Origin: Bispira polyomma
Lineage: Eukaryota
Assembly: GCA_965649765.1 (NCBI GenBank)
Contig: OZ287761.1
Location: 15,624,001-15,688,000 of the forward strand
Direction of reading: 5' to 3'
Length of the DNA stretch: 64,000 nt
Numbering within the stretch: the stretch's first letter is position 1; each line of letters begins with the position of its first letter. Under the pieces are notes generated by a model. The model was not told the DNA's origin and made no database searches. It was given only the letters and a program-made list of their open reading frames with translations. The translations under genes were made by a program, and so were the position numbers. This document shows positions 3,150-53,159 of this stretch, piece by piece.

Positions 3150-4346
3150 ATACCTTAGTGAATCACACCTTAAAGATAACAAAACTTATTGTCAAAGTCC
3201 ATTTAATTCGTGATAACGTCGAAATTAATTGGTGTTTTTTTTGTGCATAGTGATAAAAACAGAAAAAAGCCAATAACAAAGCAAATTGATACATAATTAG
3301 TCAACAATTGAATGTTATTTAGTACATATTAAGTACAAAAAAAGTATAGTGGTATGTGAATGACATCTTTTCTTAGTAGTTAAAACCAAAGAGTCTGCAC
3401 AAATGAAGTTTTATCCTCCTAAATTTATGCTTTTCCATTGTTTTATACAGAAATGCCTCTTCTATTTTATGAACAATATATTGTCCAAACAAAATCTTGC
3501 ATTTCTCCCGACATGTTTGGATAATAGAGGTTCTACCGTGCTTAAATGGCTAAATGGTCTCATATTTGCTGTAACAAGTCATTTCAAATGCAAGGAGTAT
3601 GTTATTATTGTATTATGGGGGTTCAGTGGCTTTAAAACCAAATCTGTAATGAAACTGACTGTTGGTCTGTCTAGTTTAATATACAAAATTGAAAATACAG
3701 TTGAACTCTGTTAAGTCGATTCTGAAGGGACCATACAAATTTGTTGTACTTAACAGGAATTCTACTCGACAAGGTAAAGTTTAATTAGAAATTTAGCAAT
3801 TTGACCTTAAACTAATCTCCACTTAACAGGTAATTAACCTCGCCCTTTTTAACCTCGCCCTTTAGGAGAGGTTATTGTTTTCGGTTCGTGTGTGGGTGTG
3901 TGTATAAACCATAATTACACAAAATACTGTACTGTATCAAATCCAATAAAATTTACAGATCTGTTTCAAAATTGGGACCTCTACATTTGTGCCAAATTTC
4001 ATACCAATCGGGTGTGAACTGTAGCTTTAAGATGAGATTACCTTTTTTATATACAAAACTATCACTGAAGATCTGTTTCCTTCCGCGCCATATATAAGAA
4101 ACGAAGACAGCGTTCGGCAAACCGAAGCTACTCCAAGATCGGGGATCATTTGCATATATCGAACACCGAAGACACCGCTCGGGGATGTATGACCTATTTA
4201 TTTTCAGCGAAGACAGCGTTCGGCAAACTGAACCTACACTGAATCCAAGATCAGGGATGTATACGAAATATGGTGACGTCTTCATTACGTCATCAACGCA
4301 CTATTTTTGATTATGACGTCACAATCTTCTGGCTGATATACTCCAT

Positions 4347-5087
4347 GTCGCATCGGTGTGTAGATCATGTTTTGTTGGCCTCCGTGATTTCAGGTGGATT
4401 CGATGCTATCTTTCAAAATCCACTGCAATCACTGTTGCCAATGCTTTGGTCAGCAGCAGGCTTGATTACTGCAACTCTCTGTTTCGTTCCTTATCTCGTA
4501 GTGATCTCAGACGCCTTCAGAATATCCAACACTCATTGGCATGTATTGTGACCAAAACATCTAAATTTTTCCACATTACTCCTGTACTCAAGTCACTGCA
4601 CTGGCTCCCAATAAAATATCGTGTTGCTTTCAAAACAGCAACAATAATATATAAATTTCTAAATTCTAGATTACCCACTTATTTTAGCCCCCATCTATCC
4701 AAATATACATGCTCAGTCAGGACTAGGCGCAGTAACCCTGATAAATTATACCTTAACATTCCCACTTTCGACCCTCGCATCCACAAATCCAAAGTTCAGT
4801 TCAATTACTGCCTAGCTCATGATGGCCCCCTCATTGGAACAGCCTACCTGATCATGTTCGCCTGGCTCAAACTTTCTCCTCTTTCAGGAGTAAGCTGAAG
4901 GCCTATCTTTTTGAACAGGCTTTTCCACCTTAGCCGTCGCAACCATCTACGGTAGTCTCCCTGGTTACGACTTCCATCCGCCCACTATTTTTGATTTGCT
5001 ATTAACGTTTTGGGTTTGTTGCGCCTTAGAATTTGTTGTACAAAGATTAAGCGCTATAAAAGTACGACTAGATTAGATTAGATTAGA
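4347..5087 (+). mobile_element. 5'-truncated L2/CR1-group LINE (RT C-terminus, 3' UTR, (ATTAG)n tail)
   Basis: ALVSSRLDYCNSL...HITPVLKSLHWLPIKYRVAFK motif; tail GACTAGATTAGATTAGATTAGA; TCCAT on both sides (4342-4346 and 5088-5092). Confidence 0.9.
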
Positions 5088-20588: not shown

Positions 20589-31445
<10,857 letters not shown>

Positions 31446-31466
<21 letters not shown>

Positions 31467-31738
31467 CTTGTCTTCACTGCTCTGATGATGTACACCCTGG
31501 CTGTTCAACAGGGGGCTGTGGGGTGAGATGTTCTGTCCTAAGGCCAGTGGGCTGGTCTCCACCTGGCTGGCGGTAATGGCCGAAGATGGGCTGGTCACGT
31601 GACTTGCGTGTGGGTAACTGGCGTTTTGAACCACCGATGGGTGAAGGTCGTTGCTATGGTCGTGCTGCAGTTGTTGGGTAAGGCTACTTCCGGAAGTATG
31701 TGGATGCTGATGCTGGAATTGAATTTCAGGCGTCACTG
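31446..31738 (-). CDS. NR4A: NR4A upstream exon: H/Q/S-rich in-frame extension ending in MLVLQAQ (ATG at 31466)
   Basis: Polypyrimidine tract and tandem acceptor ttccagCAG; open frame VTPEIQFQHQHPHTSG...SSEDKMLVLQAQ|gtcagt; MLVLQAQ resembles the vertebrate NR4A start MPCVQAQ. Confidence 0.82.
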
Positions 31739-32708
31739 CTGGAAATGGAAAAAAATTAAATACCAATGGTTAGTCTTGGGAATCTAACATTGAGTTAATT
31801 ATGTGGTAGTCCTTTGTCACATACAGTTTCATTTCTACCTGGCGCAAAGTTCTGAAAGAAAGGTTGGCTATATTGTTTGTCAAAGCATAAACTTTCTGTG
31901 GAAGGCAAATGTTCTGTCAAGTTCTCAAACTATCACTTAAACCCAAAAACAATATATTCTGCATTGACTTATCAACAGAACTAAAGAAATGTCTTCCTAT
32001 ATTTCAATATTAAATTCATATCATACAGTTATTGATTTACTCCCAAAACGTAAATAATAACAAGTAAGAAACCATAACCGTTTTAAAGATACATATGTAA
32101 AGAGATAACAAATTAGTAACATTACAATCACCCTTCATAAGAATATCATCTGCATATTTACATCCTCTGGTGTGTCAAGTCTTAAAACAGTAAACTTAGA
32201 CACTGGTGACGTAAATCTTTTATTACACAACTTTTACTCAATCCTACTAGTTATTGTCAGTTAACTACTTATATTTAGTTTTTATTATATTATACACATT
32301 CAGCAGCATCAAACTTTCACTTTGCATCTTCTTCGGTAGAACAAACACAGCAATTTTTCAACATCTTAAAAAAAAGTTATAGTATCACGTGACCTACCTG
32401 TAAACGTGTTCCCACAGTTATTGTTGTAATATGAATAATTGTTCATATTATGGTAACTATTCTCTTCACCGTACAGAATCATGTTTGCTTATGCATAGAG
32501 TACATACACGTGTGGTGTAGAGATATCACAAGTAACTGTTCACAGTTATCTGAACTGTGCTCTATTTCCCTACCTCAATAAATAAACTGTTTTTTAAAAG
32601 AAGCACTATTCTTGTCCCTCGTTTGATCTCTCCTCCAGACGTAATGGCCACCACCAAAATAATGAACTTTCACTTTGCTGAATTTTTATTAGATTAGGTT
32701 GCCTCTCA

Positions 32709-32756: not shown

Positions 32757-35700
32757 CTGTATGGAGACTGTTAATTTCCAATCTTCAGTATTATATATTA
32801 ATCAATTTTAAAACCCACTTGAAATTTCAAAGTTGAAACATTTCAACATCTCAGTGGAAAGACACTTGTAGAGTCTAATTAAATGGCAAACTTCTAAAGG
32901 TTTTTATAAAATAAACTCTTTATATGGCTAATGATGACTACCCCTCACTAGACCCCTCCCCTCTCTCTTCCCCCCCCCCCCCACACACACACACTTGAAG
33001 GGTGTCTTATGCCTATCCCTGGGCTCCTATTGGCTAAAAGTTTTCAATTAAAAACAAGCTTGGTCCTATCAACAGTGGGTGTCAAGTTCCATACTCACTC
33101 AACTGACACACTTTCACATCCATGAATAGTTTCCCATAGTTCTTCCAAACTTCTGATTTTAACCTCAAAATATAAAGCTTTAATTTTAATTACTAAAGGT
33201 TTTCTCTTGTTCCTTCAAACATCACATTTTAACCCCCTAAAAATGAAGCTTTAATTTTAAGTATTAAAGGTTATTACTAGTGACATTTTCAGTTTCATAC
33301 TCACACTTTCTAACCCATAACAACTTTTCCCATCTTCCTGTGAACATCTGATTTTAGCCTCAAAATGAGACTTTACTTTTAGTTATGAAAGATTATTACT
33401 AGTGGTATTGTATTTAAACTATTAAAAATATGTATGTAAAAAACCTTTTTCAAACTTTTTGTTGGCTTCATTTACATTGTAAGGTTATTCGTCAACTTTT
33501 TGGTTATATTTTAGGAAATTTTATTGCTCTACTGGGTTGCGTTTCTCATATTTTATCTATACATTGCTCTAAAATTAGTGAACTTATGCATTAGGTTAAG
33601 TGGTTTGTATCTAAGTACCTAAAACCAGAAGCAAATTGGAATTCCCACAATATCACAATTTCAAAACTGTAATCACACAATATCTAAAATGATACCTTCT
33701 CTCGATGATGTCACAATATTGCGGTAGACGATGACGTCTTTAGTTATAATAATTCAAAAATGTTAAAGACATATTTCACTTGATAACAACCGTCCATCAA
33801 AAGACAAAGCCACGCTTTGGTTGTTAACATTTTAAACGTTTAAAATATTAAATTTACCTAGCCAATCTTAAGATGGGCTACTTTGGATGGCATTTAAACA
33901 TTTAATAACTTCTTAAATTCACATTTTTGTGGAAAAGAAAGATATCAAGATGTGGCTAACTGTTGCCTTTGACTTTTGTCATTTGACTTGAAAACCAATA
34001 AGTTTGCATCTGATGGCAAGTTAACAAATGATAAGGCTGCATAAATTGGCACAAAACAAATATGAAACTCCTGCTAATCTCTTAAGACGATTATGGGAAA
34101 GTAATCTATACTTGTGACCATAGATTTTGGTAGAGCTGTACACATTAAGTGTAGTTTTTTTTTCGTGAAACAGACTTTTTTGTAAAAGTTACCATGTAGA
34201 CATTTGAGCTCAAAGATGTCTTTAAGCTTTAGTGTGTTCCAATAATTATGCTTGTGTATTTATATATTTATAATACCAATGCTAGAGTTTGTAAGGCCTA
34301 TAATATTTTCACATTTCTACAAGCATACTAGGTTTTAAGCAAGTGGCGACAAAGAATCTACGCTCATAATATTTTCACATATCCACAAGAATACTAGATT
34401 TTAAGCAAGTCAACTCGCGACACAGAATCTACAGTTATATTTTTGTTAAGACCAAAAAGAACGATTTTCAACCTAATTGACATTTTAACAGTATTTTGGT
34501 TACTAACCATATTATTATAAACTATGTAATATAAGAAGGTTAATGACTAAATGTTGTTTACTAATTCCAACAGAGGAATCACACGAAATTTTTGGTTATG
34601 AAATGCAAGAACCTTTACTAACTTAGAACTAGATCAACCATTTCTTTACCATTTTTTTTTTTCACTTGAGTTTAACCCTTTGTGTGACGTCATTATTGCC
34701 ATTGCAAATTTATTTAAAGAAAATAAAAAAATCTTTTTTCAACAAAAGACAGACTTTTGAAGAAAAGTGAAATAAAATTACGAATAAGAAAACAGTAAAA
34801 GATGTATATTTCAAATATCGTTTTGTAACTGCCAATAGTTTACACTTTGAATATGTAACAAGCTCACTGTATTAGAATATAAATGAAATTTTTTGAGTTT
34901 GTGTAAGAAACTCTTTGTAAAATTGCAATCATGGCAAGCTATTGTACAGTATTCCCTTCAAATTATCTTTCGTATGTACCTAACACCCTATTAGCATGTG
35001 TAGTGTATTTTAAAAATGACAGTTCATAAATACATCATACAAAAGAAGTTTTTTCTTGAATATAAAGAAGAAAAAACTTGGAAAAGTTTAACCATATAGT
35101 AACCTATATGCACAATTTATCCTTAATGTTGCATCCCATTCCAATAGTTCAACCATATAGTAAATGAATTTGCATTGTCAATGGACTACAATTTAACAAC
35201 TTTGTCAATGATGTTGCACTTTAGAAGATGATGCCTGGCATTAATTAGGCACGTAAAAAAAATCTATCATATCAGCATATATTGCACAGTTTTACCTTCA
35301 TATTCGGTCCCATTCCAATATTTCTTTACTCTGGAGAAGAAATGATTCACTCTGTTTTGCATGTTGGATACACTGACTGTTTGTGTGCAGTAGGCATTTC
35401 CAGCTATGTCCTAGTTTTAATTATATACATCTACACATTCCAATCAGGATCACATGTGTATCTCAGATATATATTTCTCATTCCAGCTCAAAATGCCCAG
35501 AACTGTTTATTTATTTGTTGTATTTTTGGTATTTCTAGATATAGTTTCTAAGTTTAAATTACAACAAAGTAAGCAATAAAATATTCAGTACACTTAAAGA
35601 CACCGACAGCTCATAATTATACTAAAAAAAAACATGTATTTTTTCAAATACTTATGCTATTTCCCTCTGTCCCAACAGTAGCTGTGCACACAAAACACAC

Positions 35701-38700
35701 GCCCTCCCATTGATATCTAATTAATTATTCATTAGGCATTGTAACTTTTCTCCACCCCCCCCAAAATAACATTAATCCAGCTACTACAGAAATACCCCCC
35801 TCCCGAAATTTGGGTCACGTGACCACAGCCCTATCCGGTTTGGCTCTTGTTAATCCGATGTTATGTAAATTAATAAAGTATTCACGTGATATTTTATGGA
35901 TGCACTTGATTTGAAATCATCCAGAGTGGGCTAGGTACTATGCTGCACTTGATTTAAATTAATGAAGTAATCCACAAGAGATATGTTACGTTTATATCAT
36001 TGAAATGTTTCTGTGTTATGTTCAGGGCCATTCTTATATAACTAAATTAGGTCCAATAAATACTTACTTTATAATATTATGTGCCAAAAAAAAAAATAAA
36101 TAAAAACCCTGGGGAATTCAAAAATGGACATTCTAGTTCTATTGTCAAATTTAACTTACGTCTATACAACAGATACCAGAAATTCTAAAATATCTCAGTT
36201 TTTTTTCCCCTTTAAAATGATAAAACTTCATCATACAAGAATGTCTTGAGTGTTTTGTTAAATCTTTTAAATACGTAGATAAAGCTGTCAATCAAATCAG
36301 GGGGTAGGATAACAATTGGGGTAGGGGTTTAACATACAAATACATGTACCTATACATGTATACACATACAAGAGAAGTTGGTCTCAAGTGGTATAAACAC
36401 AGCCTACGTGAGTTGGGATGACGTCATTCTACTACTCTCATTTCAAGGTTTTTGTCAATGGAAAAGTTACGTGCAATAATGTCTCCCAGGTTATAGAAAA
36501 AATTTTTATAATTTTTTTTTTTTTTTTTTTTAGGTGTATTTCAAATTTGTGTCTTGTTTTTTTATTTTTTTTTTAATTATTTGTAAACTTAGTATTATGA
36601 CTCATTTTGGGTTTTCAGATTTATATATACAAAACTCCTACATTTTCCCTGTGTTCTAAAAACCTTCTTTTTTCTTAGAATAATAAGTACGTCAGTTTAT
36701 CAGATAACACATGTTGAATAATACAGTAGTATTTTAAGATCATCGTTTAAATTACAAAAATTTCTAGTTATTATAAGTTAATTACAAAATGGATCAATGG
36801 GGTGGTGTTGCATTAAATATATTTTAGTTATTATATCCAGACGAAAATATACATATATGATAATTTAAGTTTATGAATTTTGAAAAGTTAATAATGAAAT
36901 GTCTTTCCACTTAATACATTTTTAACTGACAAACTACGTAAACAAGTCTTTTCAAATACTAACTGTGGCTAAGAAACAATAAATCCCCGAGTTAGAAAAT
37001 AGATTTTCTCTGTTGAAAACCTGTAGGAATGCAAATTGAACAAATTAAAATCACTCATCACTGCGTCATAATACAAACAATGCCCCCCCCCCCCTTTTCC
37101 CGTCTTCTGACGCATGCGCAGAATGTGTGTGTAAATAAATCACTGCACATAGTTAACAAGGGTGCCCATTAAACCTCTCACCCCACCCCACCCCACACCC
37201 CTCTCAATGGAGTTTATCTGGGGAGTGGTAACCAGTGGATCACACTGGGGACATTAAAAGAAAGAGGTTAGTGGGTGTTTAGGGGCCAATTAAGCAATAA
37301 TGTTTTCATCTTGGTAAGGTTTGTGCAGAGATAAAAGAAATCCAGCCCAGTCTTTAAACAGCAGGATACAAGTGTATATATATACCCGGCTTAATGTTTG
37401 TGTGTCATTTCTAATAGTTAAGTGAACAAAAGTAAGGTCACTTTAAAATAATTTAAAAAGTTTAGCACCATTGTCAGCCCTATGTCAGCATGGAATGATA
37501 TATTGTAGACTTAAAACAGATGTATTTGTCCTGAGTTGGAAAGTATCCATAAAAAATGTTATAATAAACTCGTTATAAGTACAAGTCATTAAAAAGTTTA
37601 GTCACAATTGCCCCATATTAGTATGGAATAATACAGTATAGACTTAAAACAGATGTATTTGTCCTCAGTTGAAAAAGTTTCTATAAAATAAGTTATAATA
37701 AACTCGTTATCAGTAAAAGTCATAACAGAACCATCTAGATCAGTTCTATAATATGATGGGTATCCATAGAGTCAAACTGGTGGCTTTGAAAATGTGAGAG
37801 AATAGAAATTTTTAAAATACACATATTTAGGCTTAAGTCCACTAGTGCTAGGTGTATATATGTAACACTGTTTACTCTAGTTTTATTGTAATTTCCATGT
37901 GTACTGTGTCACAATAATAGATGAATAAATAAATACAACATTGTTATTGTTGTCCTAAACACGTGTATATAGAGACCTAACAACGTGAACATTCAGAGCA
38001 ACCTGAAGAAACTATAGCTTTTGGCACCAGCAGTCTTGTCTTTTGATAAAATAAAATATAAAATTTGATAAAAGTTATTATGGTGATATAGTATATACAC
38101 ACACACACACACAAAAAAAAAAAAAAATGCATGTTATACATTGACAATGTAGTACCCAGCCCTAATGGGCTTATTAGTCACTAATAATCTTATTAAAATG
38201 GTAGTTTAACAATAACTTATTACACCAATTTGCAACCTTCTTTGATGACACATCATTTTTGGGGCTTTTGTTGTAAATTTTCCTTTTGTTCAAAATATAA
38301 CACGGACAGCTGTCTTTATTTGTCACTTTTTATGTATATATAATAACATGTTATCAATCTTACTCTCATATCGAGAGATAAACACACCCATATATTTGTT
38401 ATATATGTATACAGGTCAACACTTTATGCACTTGAGCTATAAGTATATTTTGATGGAGAAGGACGTTCTGGTGGTTTGTGCAATTAATAGAATTAACAGG
38501 AGCTTATCATTTATTAATACAGACCTTAAAACTGACATTATCGCCCATTGTTAGGTCACGTGGTGGGGAGTCTTCCAGAAAATCGGGCGTACTGCTGACA
38601 TTTGGGAAACCAATTTGGAAGAAGAAGCAAAAACAATCTGGCCTGAATAGCAGCCTTCCGCCTGGCTGGTTTTCATAATGACAATATTGTTTAATTACAG

Positions 38701-40876
38701 GAGTCAGATCTGGAGGTTCTGTTTTTTTTTGTGGGAGATTGTATGGAACAAGTTTGGATAGAGAGATAGTGTTGTTAGAGAAGAGGAGTGTATATATATT
38801 TAATCACACGCAAATTTCCTTTGAAATTACTCAGCAGCAGACGAAAATTGATGGACAACATTCTAAATGTCAAACTTCCCCCAAAAGTTTTTTTTTTTAC
38901 TAGTATCAAAACATGCAGGCAGCGAGAAGGATGGTTTTTGTTTCTTGTAAACATCTTTCTATGTTTTCATTGTGTAAAGTGTTTCCCTTTGTTTAAGCAC
39001 ATTGAAGAGCGAAGACTAATTCATTCTATTATAATTGAAGGAGGATGGGTTTTTTTTTTCTCGACAAAACACGTCATCGCAATATAAGTGTCCACTTCTC
39101 AATTTGTGCAAAACACGGAAGTCTACAAATTATGAAAATCAAGGAGTTTAAGTTCACATCAAATCTAGATGTTATATGGTATTGTTACAGCTTATTTCGC
39201 AGAACAAAATTTTTATGTTATTTTACAAGCAATCAAAAATTATCTACTATCCCAATTACAGTATTTTTGTGGTTATAGGTAATATGCCTTACTTGAAATA
39301 TGTATAATTTCTTATGAGTTCTTAGCAACATTCGATAAAGCTTATTTTTTTGGGCATGAACTTTATACACAGCAACTTTCTTTTATTCTGAAGGCGACGC
39401 CATAAAGTTTGCTGTGGAGACGAAGCTGAAGTAAATGTATAGCTTTTTAAAATTCTCTACAAATTGGATTTCAAATGTCAGGCTGAAGTGAATGTTCATA
39501 AAACACATATATCAAAAACCCATTACTCATTGTTTGGAGGAGGGGGGAAGTGGTGGTGTGATTTGGGATATATCAAAACTTTCTCTGCTGAAACCTAATG
39601 TCTGTAAATAACTTTTGTAATCCCCCTTTATCGTATTTCTGTATTAATCTGACTGTTCTAATTGACTAAATAATGTTTGGGTTACCTCCCTGTCTCATAT
39701 TTAACATCCATCATGATATATATATATATACATGAATATATGTCAGTCCTTTCCTGGAGGTATATGTCAATGGGTCACAAGGAAAGAAGTTAGGATGTTC
39801 ACCAAAGCCACTGTTATAACACTAATCACTGGTGATGACTAATCTATTCTTGTATTCTTTTACTGATGCATCTTTAGTGGTTCGATGTTTCCATACTCAG
39901 GACCTGGCTGATAATACAATTACACTGGCAATTATATAAACCTGCGCCCCCCCCCCCCCCCCTCAAGAATATTTACAATATCTAAAACCTTTAACACCAA
40001 CACAAGCTGATAACAGTACATTTTTGCAGCAAATTCTTATCTCAAATGACACACTTTACTCAGATTATTTAATATACTGTGGATTCATCCATGTACTTCT
40101 TCTAAACACTAAGGTGGGATAGAACATAAGACTTTATTTATGTGGTCAACATAAATCAACTTATAATTTGGGAACAATTATGACAAATTTAAAACTAGTA
40201 GCAATTAGCTAGTAATTCAAACCACCACATAACACACGGCACACACAATCTGGAACTTAAAAACAAAAACACCATCAACAGTGTCATGAACGAAACCATG
40301 CCTTTTTCAGAGCAATGGAATTTAAAATATTAGTTGCAAGTACAGCAGAAACAGGCATTTCACTGCCAATAACATCTTGCTTCAATGCGAAAACAATGTC
40401 ATAAAGATGGTAGTTTAAACAATCCAAGACCAATATTTGTCATTGCAAGTCATCAGAGCATGAGGTCACTTCCGTCTAAAGAAACTAAGTAATCAATTGG
40501 TTGACTGAAAATGATTCCAGATGATATCATGACCTGTTCTGCATTCGATGGTAGCCAGATATACCCACTATTTAAAAGAAAAGACAATGTGATCAATAAT
40601 ATGTTACAACATATGGTTATATTTTCAGTTCATGACGTGGAAAGTAATGTTTCAGTTTGGAGGCACAAACCTTAAATTCACACCACACACAAACCACCAA
40701 CAGTAAAACCAGCCACTTCTGGTCAATTCAGCAAAAATTCTGCACACATTTATGTATTTTTTTAAATTTTGTACAGGGTGAAGGATTTTGGGACAAGAGG
40801 CAGCACCACATACACACACATTCCACAAATAATGGAACTCACTGCACGTCTAGCTACAGATTTGAGCATATCTTGC

Positions 40877-41054
40877 CTGACGTGAGCATATCTAAAAGCC
40901 CATTGCCTTGTTCAGTAACTTTGTCTGGATATTGGCTCATTCTGGTGTTGATGTCTCCTGGGTGTTGTTCCTTGCACATCCTTTCTACAAAATCTGGGGG
41001 GTATGGGGGTAGAGTTCTTAGGGTCGGGGGTGGGGGTGGGTTACATACATTCAT
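40877..41054 (-). CDS. Candidate first coding exon of a long NR4A isoform (GC donor)
   Basis: ORF MNVCNPPPPPTLRTLPPYPPDFVERMCKEQHPG...LDMLTS ends TCA G|gcaaga, phase 1, matching the phase-1 acceptor at 31738; CArG box about 310 bp upstream. Confidence 0.5.
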
Positions 41055-41365
41055 TTGGGAGTGGGTGGGTAATCTTGTGTAATTATTTACTTATAATCTT
41101 TGCTGCTGGTATATTGCATACTAATTTTTGTCCTGCAGTAGCAAAATGGTCAATGGAACTGTGGGTATACAGGACTATTTCGGAAAGAGGGACAGATTTT
41201 AGGGTTTATAGGATTGCAATGATAAGAAAGCAGAAAGAAATGTCATTACATCTGCATAGATGAAAGAAGAGAGGTGCAGAATCAGAGATTATAGGAAAGT
41301 TTGTGGTGTACAGAGATTTAGAGGCTGGATCTGTGAATCAAAGCAAAATAGCAAAGGTTGTATTA

Positions 41366-41375
41366 CCATATTTGG
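41366..41375. promoter_or_regulatory. CArG box / serum response element
   Basis: CCATATTTGG is a perfect CC(A/T)6GG, upstream (minus strand) of the candidate exon 41054-40877. Confidence 0.4.
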
Positions 41376-41734
41376 TTAATGTGTTAAAATAACAAAGACG
41401 TGCAGTCGCAAGTGTGATATATCAGCCTGGTTTTGCAAAAATACCTATGCAAAAGCATCAATTTGATTGAATAAGGACTATATTACAGTATATATATATT
41501 TCCCCCGTTACTTTAATGACATATACAACACTCAATAGGCAATTGATCATGAAATGCCAAACCACTTTTATAAAGTTTCCAATTATATTAGACATCTAAC
41601 AAGTGTGTCTGAAAGTTTTACATACAACAAGGGTGGGTGGGTGTGTGTGCACCAACCCAGGACATCTTAGTGTGAAATCTTCTCAAGGGATTCAGACGTT
41701 CAACCCACCTTTCAATGTGAGATATAATATACTG

Positions 41735-43970: not shown

Positions 43971-45066
43971 AGCTGTTGAAAGTCAAAATCTAAATTCAAA
44001 CACTGAGTGACTTGTCTTTCTCATCTGATAATTTTCGAGGGGGAGGGCAAGGGGTATGTGACTTTGTGATTAAATTTAATGACTCTTTTGTCAAAGAAAA
44101 AAAAACCACACACACAAATGACACTAAGAAATAAGATATCTCTGCTTGGGCACAAGTATCTGGTCTGTTAGGTTGTATTGTCAAATTGTTGACATTAATG
44201 TGTTGTGTTTTGGCTAGTTACAACAACAAATAGAATGAAGCCGATAATTAGCTGTCAATTAAATTGTAAAGTGAAATTTCACACATCAAATTGCCAATAA
44301 TTTAATTAGAATCTGGTTGGGAATTTGATATTTTTTTTTCTTTAATTTTTTTTTTTTATGGATATGATATTGTTTCAACATCTGGAGTTTTGATGTGTGT
44401 GTAAATTAATATCTTGGACACGTCATTTAAATGTTTTTAAATTTAATCTGGCACAAATCCGCATTGATATTCTAGACCTATAATTTCCAGAACATATAGC
44501 AGTATATAGGTCAGTGGCTTTATAGTACAAAATAGTATTGGCTCCCTCTACATTCCTCATCACATTATGAGCCAAAGATAGTGAAAGTTACATAAAATCA
44601 AAATAAATCACATTATGACCCAACGATAGTAAAAGTTACACAAAATCCAAATCAATTCAAATTGAAGTTTTAGCAAGGTCTTTGATCACAAAGCCAAATG
44701 TTCAGAGAAAACTGTCTCTGTGCACCCAATTTTGCACCCTCACCATTGGGCAAGGATATACCCAATAAATCTCAAACAATTTGGTGTGTAAACTTAAACT
44801 CAACACCAGAACTTAAGGCCTTTGAATGATAAAAAATAATCTGAGTACTAGTTTAATGTTTTATATATATATATATATACCCATTCTCTTAAATCAGCAC
44901 TGTACATTGGTGTAAGTATAATAAAGTTGACATAGGGACATCTTAGATTGATCTATTTCATATTAAGTGTCCCAAACACAATTACAAGTGTCTAATGGGC
45001 CGGTCCCACCAGATTTACGTTAAGATGTGTAAGTCACGCATGGCCTTGTAAAATATTTAATGCAAA

Positions 45067-45543
45067 ACGTCATGCAGAACTCAAAATTAGCGATTTTCTC
45101 CACGTTGAAGGGGTCAACAGATGTTGAATTTCATGTATTAGTACGTCAAAAGCTGTAAAGTCTCGCAGAGGATGCATAAGTTCACAGCCAAGCACGTATT
45201 TGAACCCCCGTATGACGTGTATGAGTACGCCATTACACGTTAAAGGCCGTCATTTGTGACGTTTAAGTACATTTGACTACTTTAACTCACGTCATTCATG
45301 CATTGTGACGCACATAGCCATTACACTAGGCGAACTGTCGCAATGCTCATGCTAAAATTCACCTTTAAGTACGTCAAATTTTGCAGCTTTTGCGTGTCCA
45401 AATTTCAAACGGTTTGAAATTATTAATTTCTTGCATGTTATCTCTCACGCCAGGTTATGCATGCTTATGTATATTACGTCAGCTCCCGCAAATACCACGC
45501 AAAACCGACGCAAATTAATTTTCAAACGGCTCCTAACGTGACG
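45067..45543. promoter_or_regulatory. Dense cluster of CRE/ATF half-sites in a CpG-rich island (candidate CREB-responsive NR4A promoter/enhancer)
   Basis: About 10 CGTCA/TGACG sites at about 45067, 45142, 45213, 45248, 45257, 45288, 45306, 45370, 45474 and 45539; local CpG enrichment; NR4A genes are established CREB-induced immediate-early genes. Confidence 0.7.
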
Positions 45544-48500
45544 GCCGGTGGGACCAGGACATAACAAGAGGGATGGGTATCTATTACAGTTGTTATATTC
45601 GTGTGCCAAGCTATTTTGTTTTAATACCCAGCATTTAGACAATTTTCCACTTTTGTCCTGTTCAGAGCTTCCCGTCTGTGAACTGATTTATTCTATGGAC
45701 CAAACCCTGTACTCTCCTTGTGATTGATACTATGCAACTTAAAGTCATTATTATATAGAATCTAAAGGGACATCACACACTGTCAATTAATACCATTGTC
45801 AGTGCATCTAGGGAAAGGTGTTTAATATCTGTTTTATTATCTGTTGAAAATAATAATATTTAGAAATAATTCAAGTTGCTGCATTCTAATTCTAAGCTCA
45901 CTTTAAAAAGGCATAGGATTTAAGGATTTTTCTCTGGTACGATACAAAATGTACTCCAGAATTAATACCTGGTATTTCTGAATTCCTTCATTGTCGATCT
46001 ATTATACTAAATTAAAGATAAAGTAAGAGAGTAGTGTAATTTTAGGCCCTTTTGTTCACAGTCTGCACTGTTTTTTCAATACAAAAAAAAGACAACAATT
46101 CAATCAACAGAACTAGAGCATCTTCATGGCTTAAGCCCAAACTAAGCAGGCCAGAGAACTATAGTGTCTTTAATCTGACATCAAAACAGTTGACTTTAAT
46201 CCCAAAGAAGCATCATCCTCTGCAATACCTTCCCATAACATGACCACCTGTTCATTTTAGTGCAGATTTCATTGCATTAACGTGAAACCCAACATTTTCC
46301 TTAATTTCTTACAACACAGGGACACTAAGACCAGAAAGCTATATTTTAGGCAGGGTTAGGGCCGATGTAATAGAAATAATAGAAAAGTGATGGATTTTCT
46401 AAAATTTTAAAGTAAAAGTAATAGATTTCAAAATTTAAAATGTAATAGTAATAGATTGCAAAGTAATAGATTTTATCCATTATTTTTCTATTACTTTCTT
46501 TTACTGTCATTGTTTCATTATAAAATATATTTTATTAGGCTCTTGCATTGTCACACTGTATGAATAAAAAATTTGTAAGATTTCCACACACAACACCGAG
46601 ATTTGAAGGATATTTAAATAAATCCTTTTCAACAACCTCATTGACAAGGGACATTTGCTATATTTTGATTCGCCTTTTTAAATTTTTTTTCATGTCAAAA
46701 ATCTCAATCATTTATGCACCTAACATTTTTAGGTACAAAAATGATAACTTAAAAACATTAATGTTATACTTTTTGCTAAATATTTTTTGCCATTATAAAG
46801 TAACTGATACCAAAAACATTAATATTGTAGTTTGTGTTAAATACTGGTTGCCATTATAAAGTAACTGATACCAAAGATTTTGTCATATTTTACAGTGTCA
46901 AATAATTTTTTTAAACCACAAAACAAGCAAGATATTGTGACTCAATTGAAATGAGTTTAAGCAGAATATTTCCGCCCATATGGTTTAACTCTCACTTGTT
47001 CTAATTTCAGACAGCCAACAAGATGCTATCATCAGGATAATCTGAGATGCCATGCCACAAGCTCATTGTATTCATAATCATTAGAAAAATATGATGTTTT
47101 TGACAGCTTACCAAAGATCTGGTGTCATCACTTTGCACTTGAGATACAATGATAACCATATATCTGATTTCCTGGTCTTATTCTTTCCATCCCTGCCACT
47201 TATTGTGTCGAAACTTTCATCATGTGCAATAACTTGAATCTATCTGTTCAATATACCCTTCATACTGAAGTTATAACTTGTCACTGCTACATGTTTCTTT
47301 GTTTTTGAACATATGTATACCAAATGTTTCATTGGCCATTTTACACACCTTTCTTCTTTTTGTATGGAAACAACGAATGAAATAGACTCTTTAAGGTTAA
47401 TAACTGTAATATATTCCTCCTATTATTGGTATTCATTGTCTGTTGTAAATCTTTGATTAAAAACTTTAACAAAGCAAATAATCTATATCTAAGGTCCCTG
47501 TAGTATGAACGACAATTGTGTATTGCTTGAGATCTCATTGTTTGAGAAATTCACCCAAAGTAATAAATATTTAGTTTGTATCTTGCATAATATCGTATCT
47601 GTCCATTTTTTATATTATTACAGTTTCACTTTTGTTTTTGACAGAAATCACAAGTTTCTAACTCTTTGTTACTGTTACCTGTCTTTAACATTTACGACAA
47701 TACTGTATTGCTTTCAGAGCCATTGTTGGATTGTTGAATTTATAACAAGTTTAACTATTTAGTTACCATCTTGCATAATATGGTATCTGTCCAAGTGGAT
47801 ATATTATTACAGTTTAATATGCACCGTTTCACTTTTTATTTTTTTTATCAATCCCAATTTTCTTACTCTTTTTCTCTGTGTGCCTGTCTCAATAGTCAAT
47901 TTATTTCACATTCCTATTTTCAAATAGCATATAACTGCAACTATATTACAATTTGTAAAAAAAAATTAAAAGTTCCTTTTTAACTAGGCAGTGAGGACTA
48001 GCTATGTAGTTGAAAAAGCCCCTAACCCTTTTATATATGATGAGCATCTTGCCCACAAACCTTTGGAGATTAGCGTGATATTTTACATGATATTTACCTG
48101 CGAAGCAAACTATGCTATCAAACACTGTTTGGGACATTTAAACTACATTAAATTGCCGGCCAGTAATTGTTTTAGTAAACTTTTAGAAAATAGGGACTGG
48201 GCTCAATTGACATTATGCTGCCAGCTAATAGGGGGTAGTTGTGCGGGGTTACAGAACATCTCCAAATGGCAGGGTGACATTTCATAATAGCAGGGACACA
48301 GTTTTCCAGTTTGCTTCATTTTTCTTTTGTGTTATGTATACAATACAGCAGCAGTACGCAGTTGTGGATAGGAGAATGATACACACCAAAAATACAGATT
48401 GTCCTAATATTAAAGTATCCAGATGAAAACCTCTTATTGGCAATTGTCTTAAACCATCCAATGCAACTTTACCAAGTTTTGCATATTTTGGGGTGAAACA

Positions 48501-49544
48501 CATTAAGTTCTTAAACCCTGTTTTATAACTGCATAATGGCTTTGAATTCATTAAAAAAAAAAGAAAGATTTGTTTGTCAATATAAATTTACTTTGAGTTT
48601 CAGTACCGACTTCTCCACAATTCTGTGGGTTTTTTTTCCGGTTAGTATCCGTATAGCTGCTGTTTAGCCGCGCTGTTTCTGACGGCCTTAGCCTAATGTG
48701 GCCTTTCTGCCTGAAAAGTTAATTATATCAACACTTATAGGTTAGAACCCTGCACTGACTTTTATATGAAATGTTAAACCTGCAATTCTCGAGATTGGCA
48801 TTTGATTTCATGAAGAAAATAAATTAGCAAGGCATGGGTTGCTCTTGATGTAATTGTAAGGTATAAAGTTTCATATATTCACATCGAGACTCTGCTTGTG
48901 CTTCTGAAATAAGCAGGTTTGTACAGGAATATATAAGTAAAAATAGCGGTTTTAAAAATGATCAGGGTCGTACAGGGGCCAAAGTAAAACTACCGGTTTT
49001 CAAAATAATCATGGTTGTACAGGGTAAAAACACAGGTTTTGCGGACGACTGCAGAGACTTTAGTATAAGCCAATTTAGCATTTCGAGTGTTGAATAAATA
49101 TAATATATATTGGGGATAAATAATAGCACGTGTAAGCGATAATGACGGAGTGTGTCCAAATCTCAAAAAATAACGGCAAAATTTCCCTCCACTTCAGATT
49201 TCAAAATAATTAATATAAAGCACTAATGTTGTCAATCTTGGTATCTACAGAAAGGTTTGGATGAGAACTTCGCGATTATAAGTTATAAGTATTGATTTTA
49301 GTAGCAACACAAGAGTACTAAATACAGTGCAAACCTCCACCCATGGGATACAAAATTGGAAACACTCTGTGCTCTCAAAAACGGCCATCTGATAGCATAT
49401 AAACAAGTGGGTGAATAGATTAGTTGACAAAAAGGTATAAATACTCATAAGGGTACTCGATAAGTCATCAGTATTTATTAAGCTTTATCTAAATCTGCAC
49501 AAGATGTAATAGTTTGTTCTTGAGACCATGCCTCGGAATAGAAG

Positions 49545-50096
49545 ATTTGCTAGAATTGTGTCAAATACCAGTCGATACACCAGTATAATTCCTGTTCTTG
49601 AGCAATTGCATTGGCTTCCTGTTGAACAGCGCTCAGTGTTTAAAACAGCCACACTTGTTTATAAGTTTATTCACACTGGTTTTCCAAAGTATTTTGCCCC
49701 ATATTTTTTTTCTTACAGTAGTTCTTGCAATACCAGCCGCAGTCAGAGTGGTAGTAATTTCCTTGTAGTTCCAAAGTTCCACCCATCTATTCAAAAGTCA
49801 GTTAAACAGTTTGGTTATAGCTTTACTTTTGATGCTCCCATTGTTTGGCAAGCTCTTCCTGATACGATTCGTGCGCCCCCCTCACTAGCCTCTTTCAGAA
49901 AGCAGCTTAAAACCCACCTGTACACCAAAGCATATCTGACTTAGTCCTGATCATCCCCCGGCGTTCTCTGTGGTGCTTAACCCTTTTTCTGTCCCTAGAT
50001 ATTGAAATTGGATTACTGTCTTTTTGTGCTGTTGTGCCTTAGAGTCCCCTTCGTTAAGGGGAGATTAAGCGCTATAAAAGTCTAATTACAATTACA
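49545..50096 (+). mobile_element. 5'-truncated L2/CR1-group LINE (RT C-terminus, 3' UTR, (ATTACA)n tail)
   Basis: SIIPVLEQLHWLPVEQRSVFKTATLVYKF...SFRKQLKTHLY; the 3' UTR ends GATTAAGCGCTATAAAAGT, as in the 4347 element. Confidence 0.9.
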
Positions 50097-50315: not shown

Positions 50316-50520
50316 GGCTGCGGTGACCTATTGGTTATACGTCTTCGCTTTAAAATCACTGGCCTCTCACCTCTGGGTATCGAATCCCACAGATTCTTTT
50401 TTTTTTTTTTGCGTGTGATTAAGTACTTGCCATGGGTTGGCGGTTTATAGTGGCTTCATCACTGGTTTCCTTTACCACTAAACCTGGCCGGCGTGATATG
50501 ACCTAAGCTGTTAAAAATTA
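50316..50520 (+). mobile_element. tRNA-derived SINE
   Basis: GGTGACCTATTGGTTA...AATCACTGGCCTCTCACC...TATCGAATCCC; same family as 16410. Confidence 0.65.
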
Positions 50521-50525
50521 AATTG

Positions 50526-50851
50526 AATACACGTGAAAACAGCATGTTAGACCTCACCGGGGTGTAATACACGTTAAAACTGCATGCTGGACCTCACCGG
50601 GGTGTAATACACGTTAAAACTGCATGTTAGACCTCACCGGGGTGTAATACACGTGAAAACTGCACGCTGGACCTCACTGGGGTGTAATACACGTTAAAAC
50701 TGCATGTTAGACCTCATCGGGGTGTATGTAATACACGTGAAAACTGTATGCTGGACCTCACCGGGGTGTAATACACGTTAAAATTGCATGCTGGACCTCA
50801 CCGGGGTGTAATACACGTGAAAACTGCATGTTAGACCTCACCAGGGTGTAA
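50526..50851. repeat. 40-bp minisatellite, 8 copies
   Basis: AATACACGT(G/T)AAAACTGCATG(T/C)T(A/G)GACCTCACCGGGGTGT repeated head to tail with no unique spacers. Confidence 0.95.
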
Positions 50852-53136
50852 TTTCCTATCAATATATATGATAGGTAATTCTTTACAAGCATGCCTTTAT
50901 CATATCTCCCCCCCCCCTCCTCTGCCATTATTGATAGATCATTTCATTTCTATTGGGGTTTATTGCTGATTCTGACAGTTTTATAGACCCACTAACAGAA
51001 AGGCACTCACAAAAGGTTAATAAATTCTTTTCTTATAAATCATCTTCTTCTTCAAAAAAGGGGAACACCAACCATTTAAGTCTCCTTTCATAAGATAATT
51101 ACTCTTCACATATTATAACATGTACCTGTATACTTGCCAAAAGAGCTGAAATTGATATATTTTTTAAGTTATAGCTTTATGGTATTAATGTGGACACTTA
51201 GTGTTTTTTTCGGAGAAATGTAGGTTTAATTTCCTCAAGCACGAATTGCATTCACCCTTTTTTATATATATATTTCCACTGTTAAAAAGTTATGAGGTTG
51301 AAAGTGAAAGGCACAAAATTTAAACAGATGTCTAATACCTAGGTGATAGCTCATATTTTTTGTGCATCTCAATTTGTTGGACCTCTTTAAATAACCATAT
51401 TACATCAGAACACTGTTAATACGGCATAAATGGTCACATTCAGAGTCTGGTTTATGTTGCAAAAAACACGGTTTTTCCACTTGGTATACTATTCCAGTAA
51501 GTTTAGGGGTTTAGGCATAAGGTCATATAGTGGCTTGACAATAAATTAAAATTACACATAATTTTTTTTCAAAATTATGCCCAATTGATAAGGTTGCCTT
51601 TAATTTCAATCATGATTACTTTACAATTAACATTCGTGTTTTATGTATTGTATACATAATTTCAGCAATTTGTCGAAATTTTATTGGGGTCAAGCTCTGC
51701 TACATTGAAGTCATTTGTTATAATTAATTAAGTCCCTTTTAAAAATTAGGGTTTTTCAAAAAAGAGACACCCTTACTCATTTCAGGGAACATCTGCCAGG
51801 TAAAGCCCTGTGGTTAGGGGATCATATTTCATCAGAGACATGCTAGTCTGTTAGTATTTAAGTTTAAAATGTATGGTCATATAAAATATGGTGATCTGAT
51901 TTGTGTTTAAAAGTATGGTCATCTAAAATATAGTGATCTGAGTTAGAGATCTGAGTTAATGCGACATAGAAGTATTATTTGATTTTAAAAGTATGGTCAT
52001 ATAAAACCGTCAACTTACCAACTTATTAATTTTTCTAAAATCTAAAAAAAAAGAAAATGGCTCAAAACGCTATTATGGACGGCGAAGACATCATCTTGAA
52101 CGCTTACTTCGATTGAACTTAAAAACTACAAGATGTATCCTAATATGGGTCAGTGTTTTAGTTTTTAATTCAAATTGAAAGTATTTTTGAGACACTTTTG
52201 TGTTATATCGTCATGGTCAATGCTTTGTGCTGTACAAACCTTCAGCATTTCTTCTGCCAACTTTATTGTATTGTATACCACTGTTGTCTTTAAGCAAGAA
52301 TTATTCAATACATTGTCGTTGAAGTATATAAAAACCCTACATTAAATTTTTTGTGAGCACAGTTTAAGTATAACTTCAGTAGAAAAGTAAATGTTAAGCC
52401 TCGGTCTGCTACTAGTCAAACAACAACTGTTAAAAAGTAGATATTAAGTCTCAACCTACTGCTACAAATACAAAAGCCAACAAAATGTGTGTTGATGATG
52501 AGTTTGAACCCCTCCCCACCGCTTTAATACCCCCTTCTCCCCATATTACCATCGAGCCTCCCATTTCAGCCTCCCCCCACACACACCCAGTACAAGAATA
52601 ATAGCACAGGAGTCTGAAAAAGCCATTGTTTTGTACAACAACAAGGGGCAGACGTCCAGGGAAATTAAGTGATGATTCCTCCCTGCCTCAGATGGGCTGT
52701 CACTGGCCATCATTTCCTAATTGAAGTCAAATTGCCGACACGGGGTTAGGAGCAGATATTTATTACCCCGTCTTTATCTGTACAAACCCTCCTCTCCCCC
52801 CCCCCCTTACCCACCCCCTCTTCACCTAGAAAGAGTGTAAAGTGAAATTGTATCAATTTTAGCTAACCAAATCATCAATTTGGAGAACGTGAAAATTAAA
52901 TCTCTGTGAAAATTTGGACTTGTCTTGATATTTCAACTACAAAAGAAAAGGTTCAATAGTGAAAATTAATTCCAGTGAACTTCCGAGGAATAGTAAATTA
53001 GTGACATTTTCGTCCAGCTGAAATGCATACAGTATGTTGGGCTAAGACAAAGGGATAGAGAGCCTTATTGATAAATGTTCTGTACTTGGTATACTGAGTA
53101 TCATCGATTATTTGTATTAGGTAGAATAATGCCTTG

Positions 53137-53159
53137 TGACGTCACAGTGGCGTACGTCA
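53137..53159. promoter_or_regulatory. Full CRE plus adjacent half-CRE
   Basis: TGACGTCA at 53137-53144 followed by TACGTCA, in a CpG-containing patch. Confidence 0.4.

Follow-up and report, generated by a model that had tools for sequence, protein, structure and literature searches.

In NR4A nuclear receptors the ligand pocket is occupied by bulky side chains, and expression is induced by stimulus. With respect to promoter signals, the closest described case is rat Nr4a1, where a conserved CArG box at −123 to −111 is bound by SRF as judged by ChIP in hippocampal cultures; in the relevant passages of that report, the evidence on control of Nr4a1 by SRF versus CREB/MEF2 is mixed (PMC3720722). 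This precedent covers the SRF site itself, and the passages on rat Nr4a1 contain no word on isoform choice (PMC3720722). Likewise, hr38 is described as an immediate-early gene in the cricket, in passages that do not treat its first exons (PMC6140108). As regards splicing, GC-AG introns account for 1.2% of the first introns of human and mouse coding genes and are enriched in first introns and at alternative 5′ splice sites (PMC7242645).

The closest parallels in gene architecture come from database gene models of related animals, which we took as annotated. Mutually exclusive, short N-termini are joined to one shared exon ending in M[LI]xxQxQ in Owenia fusiformis (CAH1788402-405; all four members differ), Lineus longissimus (XP_064646080-83; three N-termini), Tubulanus polymorphus (three plus a short form), Haliotis and Patella (in each, a short form and two N-termini that by eye are conserved from one genus to the other) and, again together with a short form, Limulus/Tachypleus. 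Several N-termini are also annotated in Dimorphilus, oysters, Argiope and horseshoe crabs. The short form is produced from several transcripts per species in the models of Haliotis, Patella, Ruditapes, Mya and horseshoe crabs, and many NR4A proteins in the databases start at a motif of the MLVLQAQ type. In Tubulanus P, T or A precedes the shared part, which fits a codon split in phase 1. The 31 first-exon peptides that we cut from relatives range from 3 to 87 aa, with 11 of them reaching at least 34 aa and three at least 59 aa. Alternative first exons with PPxY are present in Owenia and both horseshoe-crab genera (P0016, P0036, P0135, P0139); PY motifs, among which LPxY is counted (PMC8509885), were found in 2/31 first-exon peptides (shuffle p 0.015). 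The sequence-only reading of the DNA studied here had suggested a system of several starts with different N-termini. The different N-termini on one exon in the relatives support this idea well, but the architecture is not new because their gene models already annotate it. In the open-access literature we found no paper that describes an alternative-first-exon cassette of NR4A.

The locus analysed here lies in a window of 64 kb at 15624001-15688000 of its contig, window meaning the whole stretch of DNA under study. By its encoded domains and its relatives, the gene is an annelid-type NR4A/HR38 nuclear receptor. It occupies 31738 to 20589 of the minus strand and comprises eight nuclear-receptor exons whose introns are all canonical GT-AG:

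31446..31738, minus strand: shared exon with a phase-1 NAGNAG acceptor at 31738/31735, starting AVTPEI and ending MLVLQAQ
25912..26031, minus strand: 120-nt phase-0 exon after MLVLQAQ, in frame, by eye like the residues of P0001 and P0002 at this place
24560..25466, minus strand: large A/B-region exon ending within the first zinc finger (protein search and Pfam)
23987..24136, minus strand: DNA-binding-domain exon (zf-C4, Pfam E 2.6e-19)
23338..23498, minus strand: exon for the C-terminal extension and hinge, with the same stretch in P0002
22456..22661, minus strand: ligand-binding-domain exon 1 (PF00104, E 1.1e-08)
21546..21727, minus strand: ligand-binding-domain exon 2, in frame with canonical ends, without a Pfam match of its own
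20589..20845, minus strand: last coding exon, ending KLPF and stop (PF00104, E 4.4e-09)

With the large A/B exon as query, 63 relatives were found among 3488 candidates, the named ones being mostly NR4A or HR38; the best were an unnamed protein of 807 aa (P0001, 42% identical) and HR38 of Paralvinella (P0002). Pfam matched zf-C4 and Hormone_recep in the coding exons, with PF00104 above the curated cut-off in two of them. The sequence of an NR4A-type C4 zinc-finger DNA-binding domain is present in the gene, a stretch of the C-terminal extension is identical to that of Paralvinella P0002, and MLVLQAQ, which represents the conserved N-terminal M[LI]xxQxQ motif, is identical in P0001, P0002 and P0016. 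Exon coordinates, frames and the identity as NR4A are direct observations, as is the architecture in the relatives' models. A full CRE (TGACGTCA) at 25959-25966 sits within the 120-nt coding exon.

The acceptor at 31738 consists of AG and a pyrimidine tract and is in phase 1. In relatives, the counterpart of the AVTPEI start reads A[LVI]SP[ED][LI], and a protein search with the 97-aa shared exon returned no match. ATG 31466 of MLVLQAQ, with A at −3, opens the short form of 667 aa. The sequence-only reading had described this acceptor as otherwise unpaired and as matched in phase by a GC donor 9.1 kb away. In the region from 31.8 to 64 kb, however, there are phase-1 sites that close a frame opened by an ATG and reach a score of at least 1.4, 26 of them GT and 14 GC; the donor matrix used is generic, and its uncalibrated scores rank sites. 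These candidate partners include a strong canonical donor at 32398:

32398..32482, minus strand: candidate first coding exon with a canonical donor, CAG|GTAGGT (score 7.25); phase 1, 28 codons plus 1 nt

The main argument for the GC exon thus fails, since a canonical exon is the better-supported partner of this acceptor, and acceptor 31738 is explicable without the GC exon.

The ATG of this proximal exon at 32482 stands in the start context CAAACATG. The exon lies 659 nt upstream of the acceptor, and a protein starting there would comprise 786 aa. Its codon scores were equalled by 20/588 and 19/588 GC-matched stretches, and by chance a strong GT donor with an ORF of at least 28 codons is expected 0.29 times per 32 kb. 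A metagenome contig (L031) offers a comparison: its best matches are P0003, P0001 and P0002, and its DNA contains a phase-1 acceptor with AISPEL...MLVLQTQ. The nearest of four phase-1 candidates upstream of that acceptor (3785-3869) also has 28 codons and encodes YGYYN at positions 16-20, where the window has YSYYN. When the two exons were set against 1884 background candidates from the genome of the window, their end-anchored score was reached by none, their local score by 7 and the length of 28 by 36. Identities amount to 6/28, and in this single comparison shuffling gave p 0.031 (ungapped) and 0.18 (local). Compared with 51 N-terminal extensions, the proximal peptide did not match any of them significantly (lowest p 0.43), and no similar proximal exon was seen in contigs L018 and L013; coverage upstream of the acceptor extended over 4.9 kb in L031 and 6.8 kb in L013. 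The Owenia isoform P0016 carries SYY eight residues ahead of the junction. A 28-codon exon is apparently common to the window and to L031 as another annelid-like NR4A locus. Exon 32482-32398 is probably real, and it is the better-supported start of a long form when compared with the GC exon.

The stretch flagged by the sequence-only reading lies farther upstream and comprises the following elements:

41366..41375, minus strand: CArG box CCAAATATGG, a perfect CC[A/T]6GG, 312 nt upstream of ATG 41054
40877..41054, minus strand: candidate first coding exon, 59 codons plus 1 nt, with a C-rich 5′ third, LPxY and donor CAG|GCAAGA
40837..40845, minus strand: competing GT donor GCA|GTGAGT, with the exon end at 40843, 34 nt downstream of the GC donor

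What that reading had described at this place was largely found again. An ORF of 59 codons opens at ATG 41054 and closes with CAG|GCAAGA at 40877 in phase 1; a perfect CArG box (CCAAATATGG) is located upstream at 41375-41366; and joining the ORF to 31738 and seven further exons, including the 120-nt exon 26031-25912, yields an in-frame CDS of 2454 nt or 817 aa. The donor context is strong, as had been claimed, since its score of 7.44 is the highest among the GC candidates listed and 7/11 U1-pairing positions match; on the same generic matrix, the seven GT donors of the gene score 1.5-8.1. The intron would span 9138 nt (40877 to 31738), with the NAGNAG alternative at 31735 giving 816 instead of 817 aa. 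Starting from the second ATG of the ORF would give 792 aa; the base at −3 is C for the first ATG, and A for the second and third. At the GT donor (40843) the score is 2.59 with 5/11 U1 matches, and splicing there would end the ORF as an upstream ORF of 66 codons. With U2-type GC-AG introns the site shares the AG|GCAAG context, the first-intron position and the GT competitor nearby (PMC7242645); it differs in that the published figures refer to human and mouse, whereas splicing here is predicted from the DNA. The region 40200-41724 is single copy and not a repeat, and the GC content of the flagged stretch, 0.48, was equalled by 2/180 upstream windows. Three sequencing runs covered the introns evenly, as DNA would, so they are uninformative on expression, and possibly they are the source of this assembly; between 40200 and 42000 they contain no splice-like joint or variant.

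Based on its amino acid sequence the 59-aa peptide has no homolog among the proteins searched; the closest relative covered reaches only 42% identity in the A/B exon. One protein search gave no match, and a second, in a representative library, gave two unrelated ones that by eye are a repeat protein and an Ig-repeat-like one; both were set aside as repeat artefacts. Matches within the same genome (L002-L004) were discarded because the DNA there shows C/G homopolymer tracts. Comparison with 51 NR4A N-terminal extensions (best p 0.32) and with 65 metagenome loci did not uncover a homolog either. These missing homologs weigh little because no close relative is among the sequences searched. The WW-type motif of the peptide is LPPY, thus LPxY and not PPxY, and PPxY or LPxY arises in 9% of its shuffles. 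Its proline run derives from a C-tract, and C-tracts with proline-rich frames are common in this genome. With a codon score trained on the gene's own exons, the stretch ranked above 49/49 background stretches (none was higher), which is largely a GC effect; this score was dropped after independent training on 30 GPCR genes of the genome, by which 17/20 and 12/20 GC-matched stretches scored as high and frame +1 of the flagged ORF outscored frame 0. The codon test is low in power because the true NR4A exons also lack a frame-specific signal.

The combination of features is rare, with the reservation that cut-offs were chosen after the feature was seen. A GC site of at least 7.4 at the end of an ATG-initiated ORF with 59 or more codons appeared in 1/150 Markov simulations of 32 kb, and in real genome DNA it was found once in 3.12 Mb of strand-phases (52 stretches), that is 0.01 per 32 kb, the single background case being presumably a transposase frame. 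Looser cut-offs raise the rate to 0.072 per 32 kb (at least 34 codons) or 0.144 (either donor type at 59 codons).

CArG boxes are not enriched in the 64-kb window (6 observed, 7.08 expected), and the chance of finding one within 330 nt is ~3%. A strand background of 1.04 Mb contains the 10-mer CCAAATATGG a single time, and an identical copy is present in L031, 3.5 kb upstream of its acceptor and above the same exon. The flanks of the two boxes do not align (84/200 shuffles as high), and directly below the box L031 has no phase-1 candidate with a score of at least 3. In L031 (1355-1900), ~530 nt below the CArG box, there is a GC-donor-like AG|GCGAGG at 1892 (6.3), the spacing in the window being similar at 498 nt. 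Judged by eye, the nearest ATG puts this site in phase 2, and with a weak GT located 5 nt beyond it a 12-codon phase-1 exon would result; the peptides do not resemble each other. A TATAAA at 41210 does not conform to the fuller TATAWAW pattern. The likeness to mammalian Nr4a1 consists of a perfect CArG box upstream of an NR4A gene; the difference is that SRF binding was measured there (PMC3720722) and is predicted from the motif here. SRF may bind to this site, and the selection of N-termini by SRF or CREB inputs, suggested in the sequence-only reading, is a hypothesis whose precedent extends to the SRF site in rat.

Taking into account these data, we consider it rather likely that this annelid-type NR4A gene has several first exons that join at 31738. 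According to this model, different alternative first exons would be spliced to the shared exon. The canonical 32482-32398 is likely among them, and possibly so is the 59-codon stretch with the GC donor, to which we give somewhat less than an even chance. Each of the short first exons would be transcribed from a promoter of its own and then joined to the phase-1 acceptor. First exons in frame would add a short private N-terminus and ~90 shared residues ahead of MLVLQAQ, while non-coding or out-of-frame ones would leave the 667-aa form from MLVLQAQ. We infer here which upstream stretches are transcribed and spliced, and by what they are driven. An alternative to upstream coding exons in general would be that MLVLQAQ is the sole start of the gene and everything upstream is untranslated. 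Many database NR4A proteins do start there, and ATG 31466 has A at −3; yet the preceding 90 codons are open and GC-rich and start with a motif conserved in annelid, nemertean and spider extensions. We regard a gene with this sole start as very unlikely.

For the flagged stretch itself, we see about an even chance that it is a fortuitous ORF with a GC look-alike, located within a long first intron or in DNA farther upstream; the CArG box would then be due to chance or belong to another promoter's enhancer. This would touch the flagged exon alone and is compatible with the several-first-exons model. It is in line with the small share of GC-AG among human and mouse first introns (1.2%; PMC7242645), the results of the protein, NR4A-extension and metagenome searches for the peptide (weak evidence, given that no close relative was covered), the GC-matched stretches with equal codon scores (17/20 and 12/20) and the higher score of frame +1, the abundance of proline-rich C-tracts, the C at −3 of the first ATG, and the fact that only 3/31 first-exon peptides of relatives have at least 59 aa; the peptide matches none of these and would rank among the longest. 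It sits less well with the rate of 0.01 per 32 kb for the combination on the sense strand in the right phase, with a CArG box within 330 nt (~3%) and with a GC content equalled in 2/180 windows, and the codon test that speaks for it is low in power. The sequence-only reading took the stretch to be a putative first exon behind a promoter with a CArG box, with the GC donor leading to an isoform of 817 aa; from the second ATG the length would be 792 aa. The donor (7.44; U1 7/11), the rarity of the combination, the unique DNA, the codon score above 49/49 stretches (largely the GC effect), the CCAAATATGG twin in L031, the SRF-bound box of rat Nr4a1 (PMC3720722) and the preference of GC-AG introns for the first-intron position and for alternative 5′ splice sites (PMC7242645) all point in this direction. 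Against it stand the low prior of a GC donor, the peptide without homolog, codons not above the GC-matched background, CArG flanks that cannot be aligned, the lack of a phase-1 candidate of at least 3 below the box in L031 and the unmatched TATAWAW. The 817-aa isoform, whose main argument from an unpaired acceptor is wrong, is a tentative proposal that we rate somewhat below an even chance.

A third possibility is that the stretch is a real first exon that is mainly spliced at the GT 34 nt downstream, so that its 66 codons would form an upstream ORF and only the short form from MLVLQAQ would be made. The score of 40843 (2.59) falls between the lowest and the highest of those reached by the true donors of the gene, and several short-form transcripts per species exist in Haliotis, Patella, Ruditapes, Mya and horseshoe crabs. 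With 5/11 U1 matches, and since a long upstream ORF is expected to repress translation, we regard this as unlikely. These gradings are estimates and not computed posteriors; they assume about two more coding first exons, GC donors in 1-3% of cases and this length in roughly a tenth. Under such priors, chance would produce the combination a few times more often than true exons would; the odds then rise several-fold through the CArG box, the matching 10-mer in L031 and the unique, GC-rich sequence. One might speculate further that the CArG-driven exon is a switch, with the GC donor leading to an 817-aa NR4A with LPxY and the GT donor to the 66-codon upstream ORF plus short receptor, and that promoter choice sets control of NR4A by WW proteins (Nedd4-type ligases or YAP/Yorkie) across protostomes, a notion that we consider very unlikely as a whole.

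Several other elements were noted in the window. A second CArG box at 52139-52148 (CCATATTAGG, minus strand), presumably resembling the serum response element of c-fos, is accompanied 1 kb away by a full CRE (53137-53144) and a half-site; the DNA around 52139-53144 is unique save for a repeat at ~52850-53025, and this segment could be a distal enhancer or promoter. Closer to the gene are full CREs at 34685 and 36419, an NRF1-like TGCGCATGCG at 37120 that is accompanied by CRE half-sites, and a TATA-like run at 38798 that precedes a donor AAG|GTCTGT after 38525 (by eye); the signals from 34685 to 38800 are candidates for further first exons, possibly non-coding. The segment 44990-46500, dense in TGACG/ACGT and with CRE half-sites at ~45000-45550, was rejected as a promoter as it is a high-copy repeat (depth >10,000 versus ~20). 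A tandem repeat at 50520-50850 has units of ~40 nt, each with a strong donor look-alike CCG|GTGAGG. The frames 150-815, 4317-4895 and 49513-49941 as well as L108 and L105 are what we take to be pieces of LINE ORF1/ORF2, L105 being presumably a DIRS-like element; Pfam gave no match over the cut-off for four LINE-like frames of the window.

If the GC exon is real, its isoform would likely be missed by annotation that does without RNA, and an immediate-early gene would possess a non-canonical first intron. The flagged exon is a tentative refinement of a gene model in an ordinary member of the NR4A family, and not a new mechanism. Beyond this single locus, NR4A gene models of animals as far apart as annelids and chelicerates show the same arrangement, in which alternative first exons form a cassette joined to one phase-1 exon.
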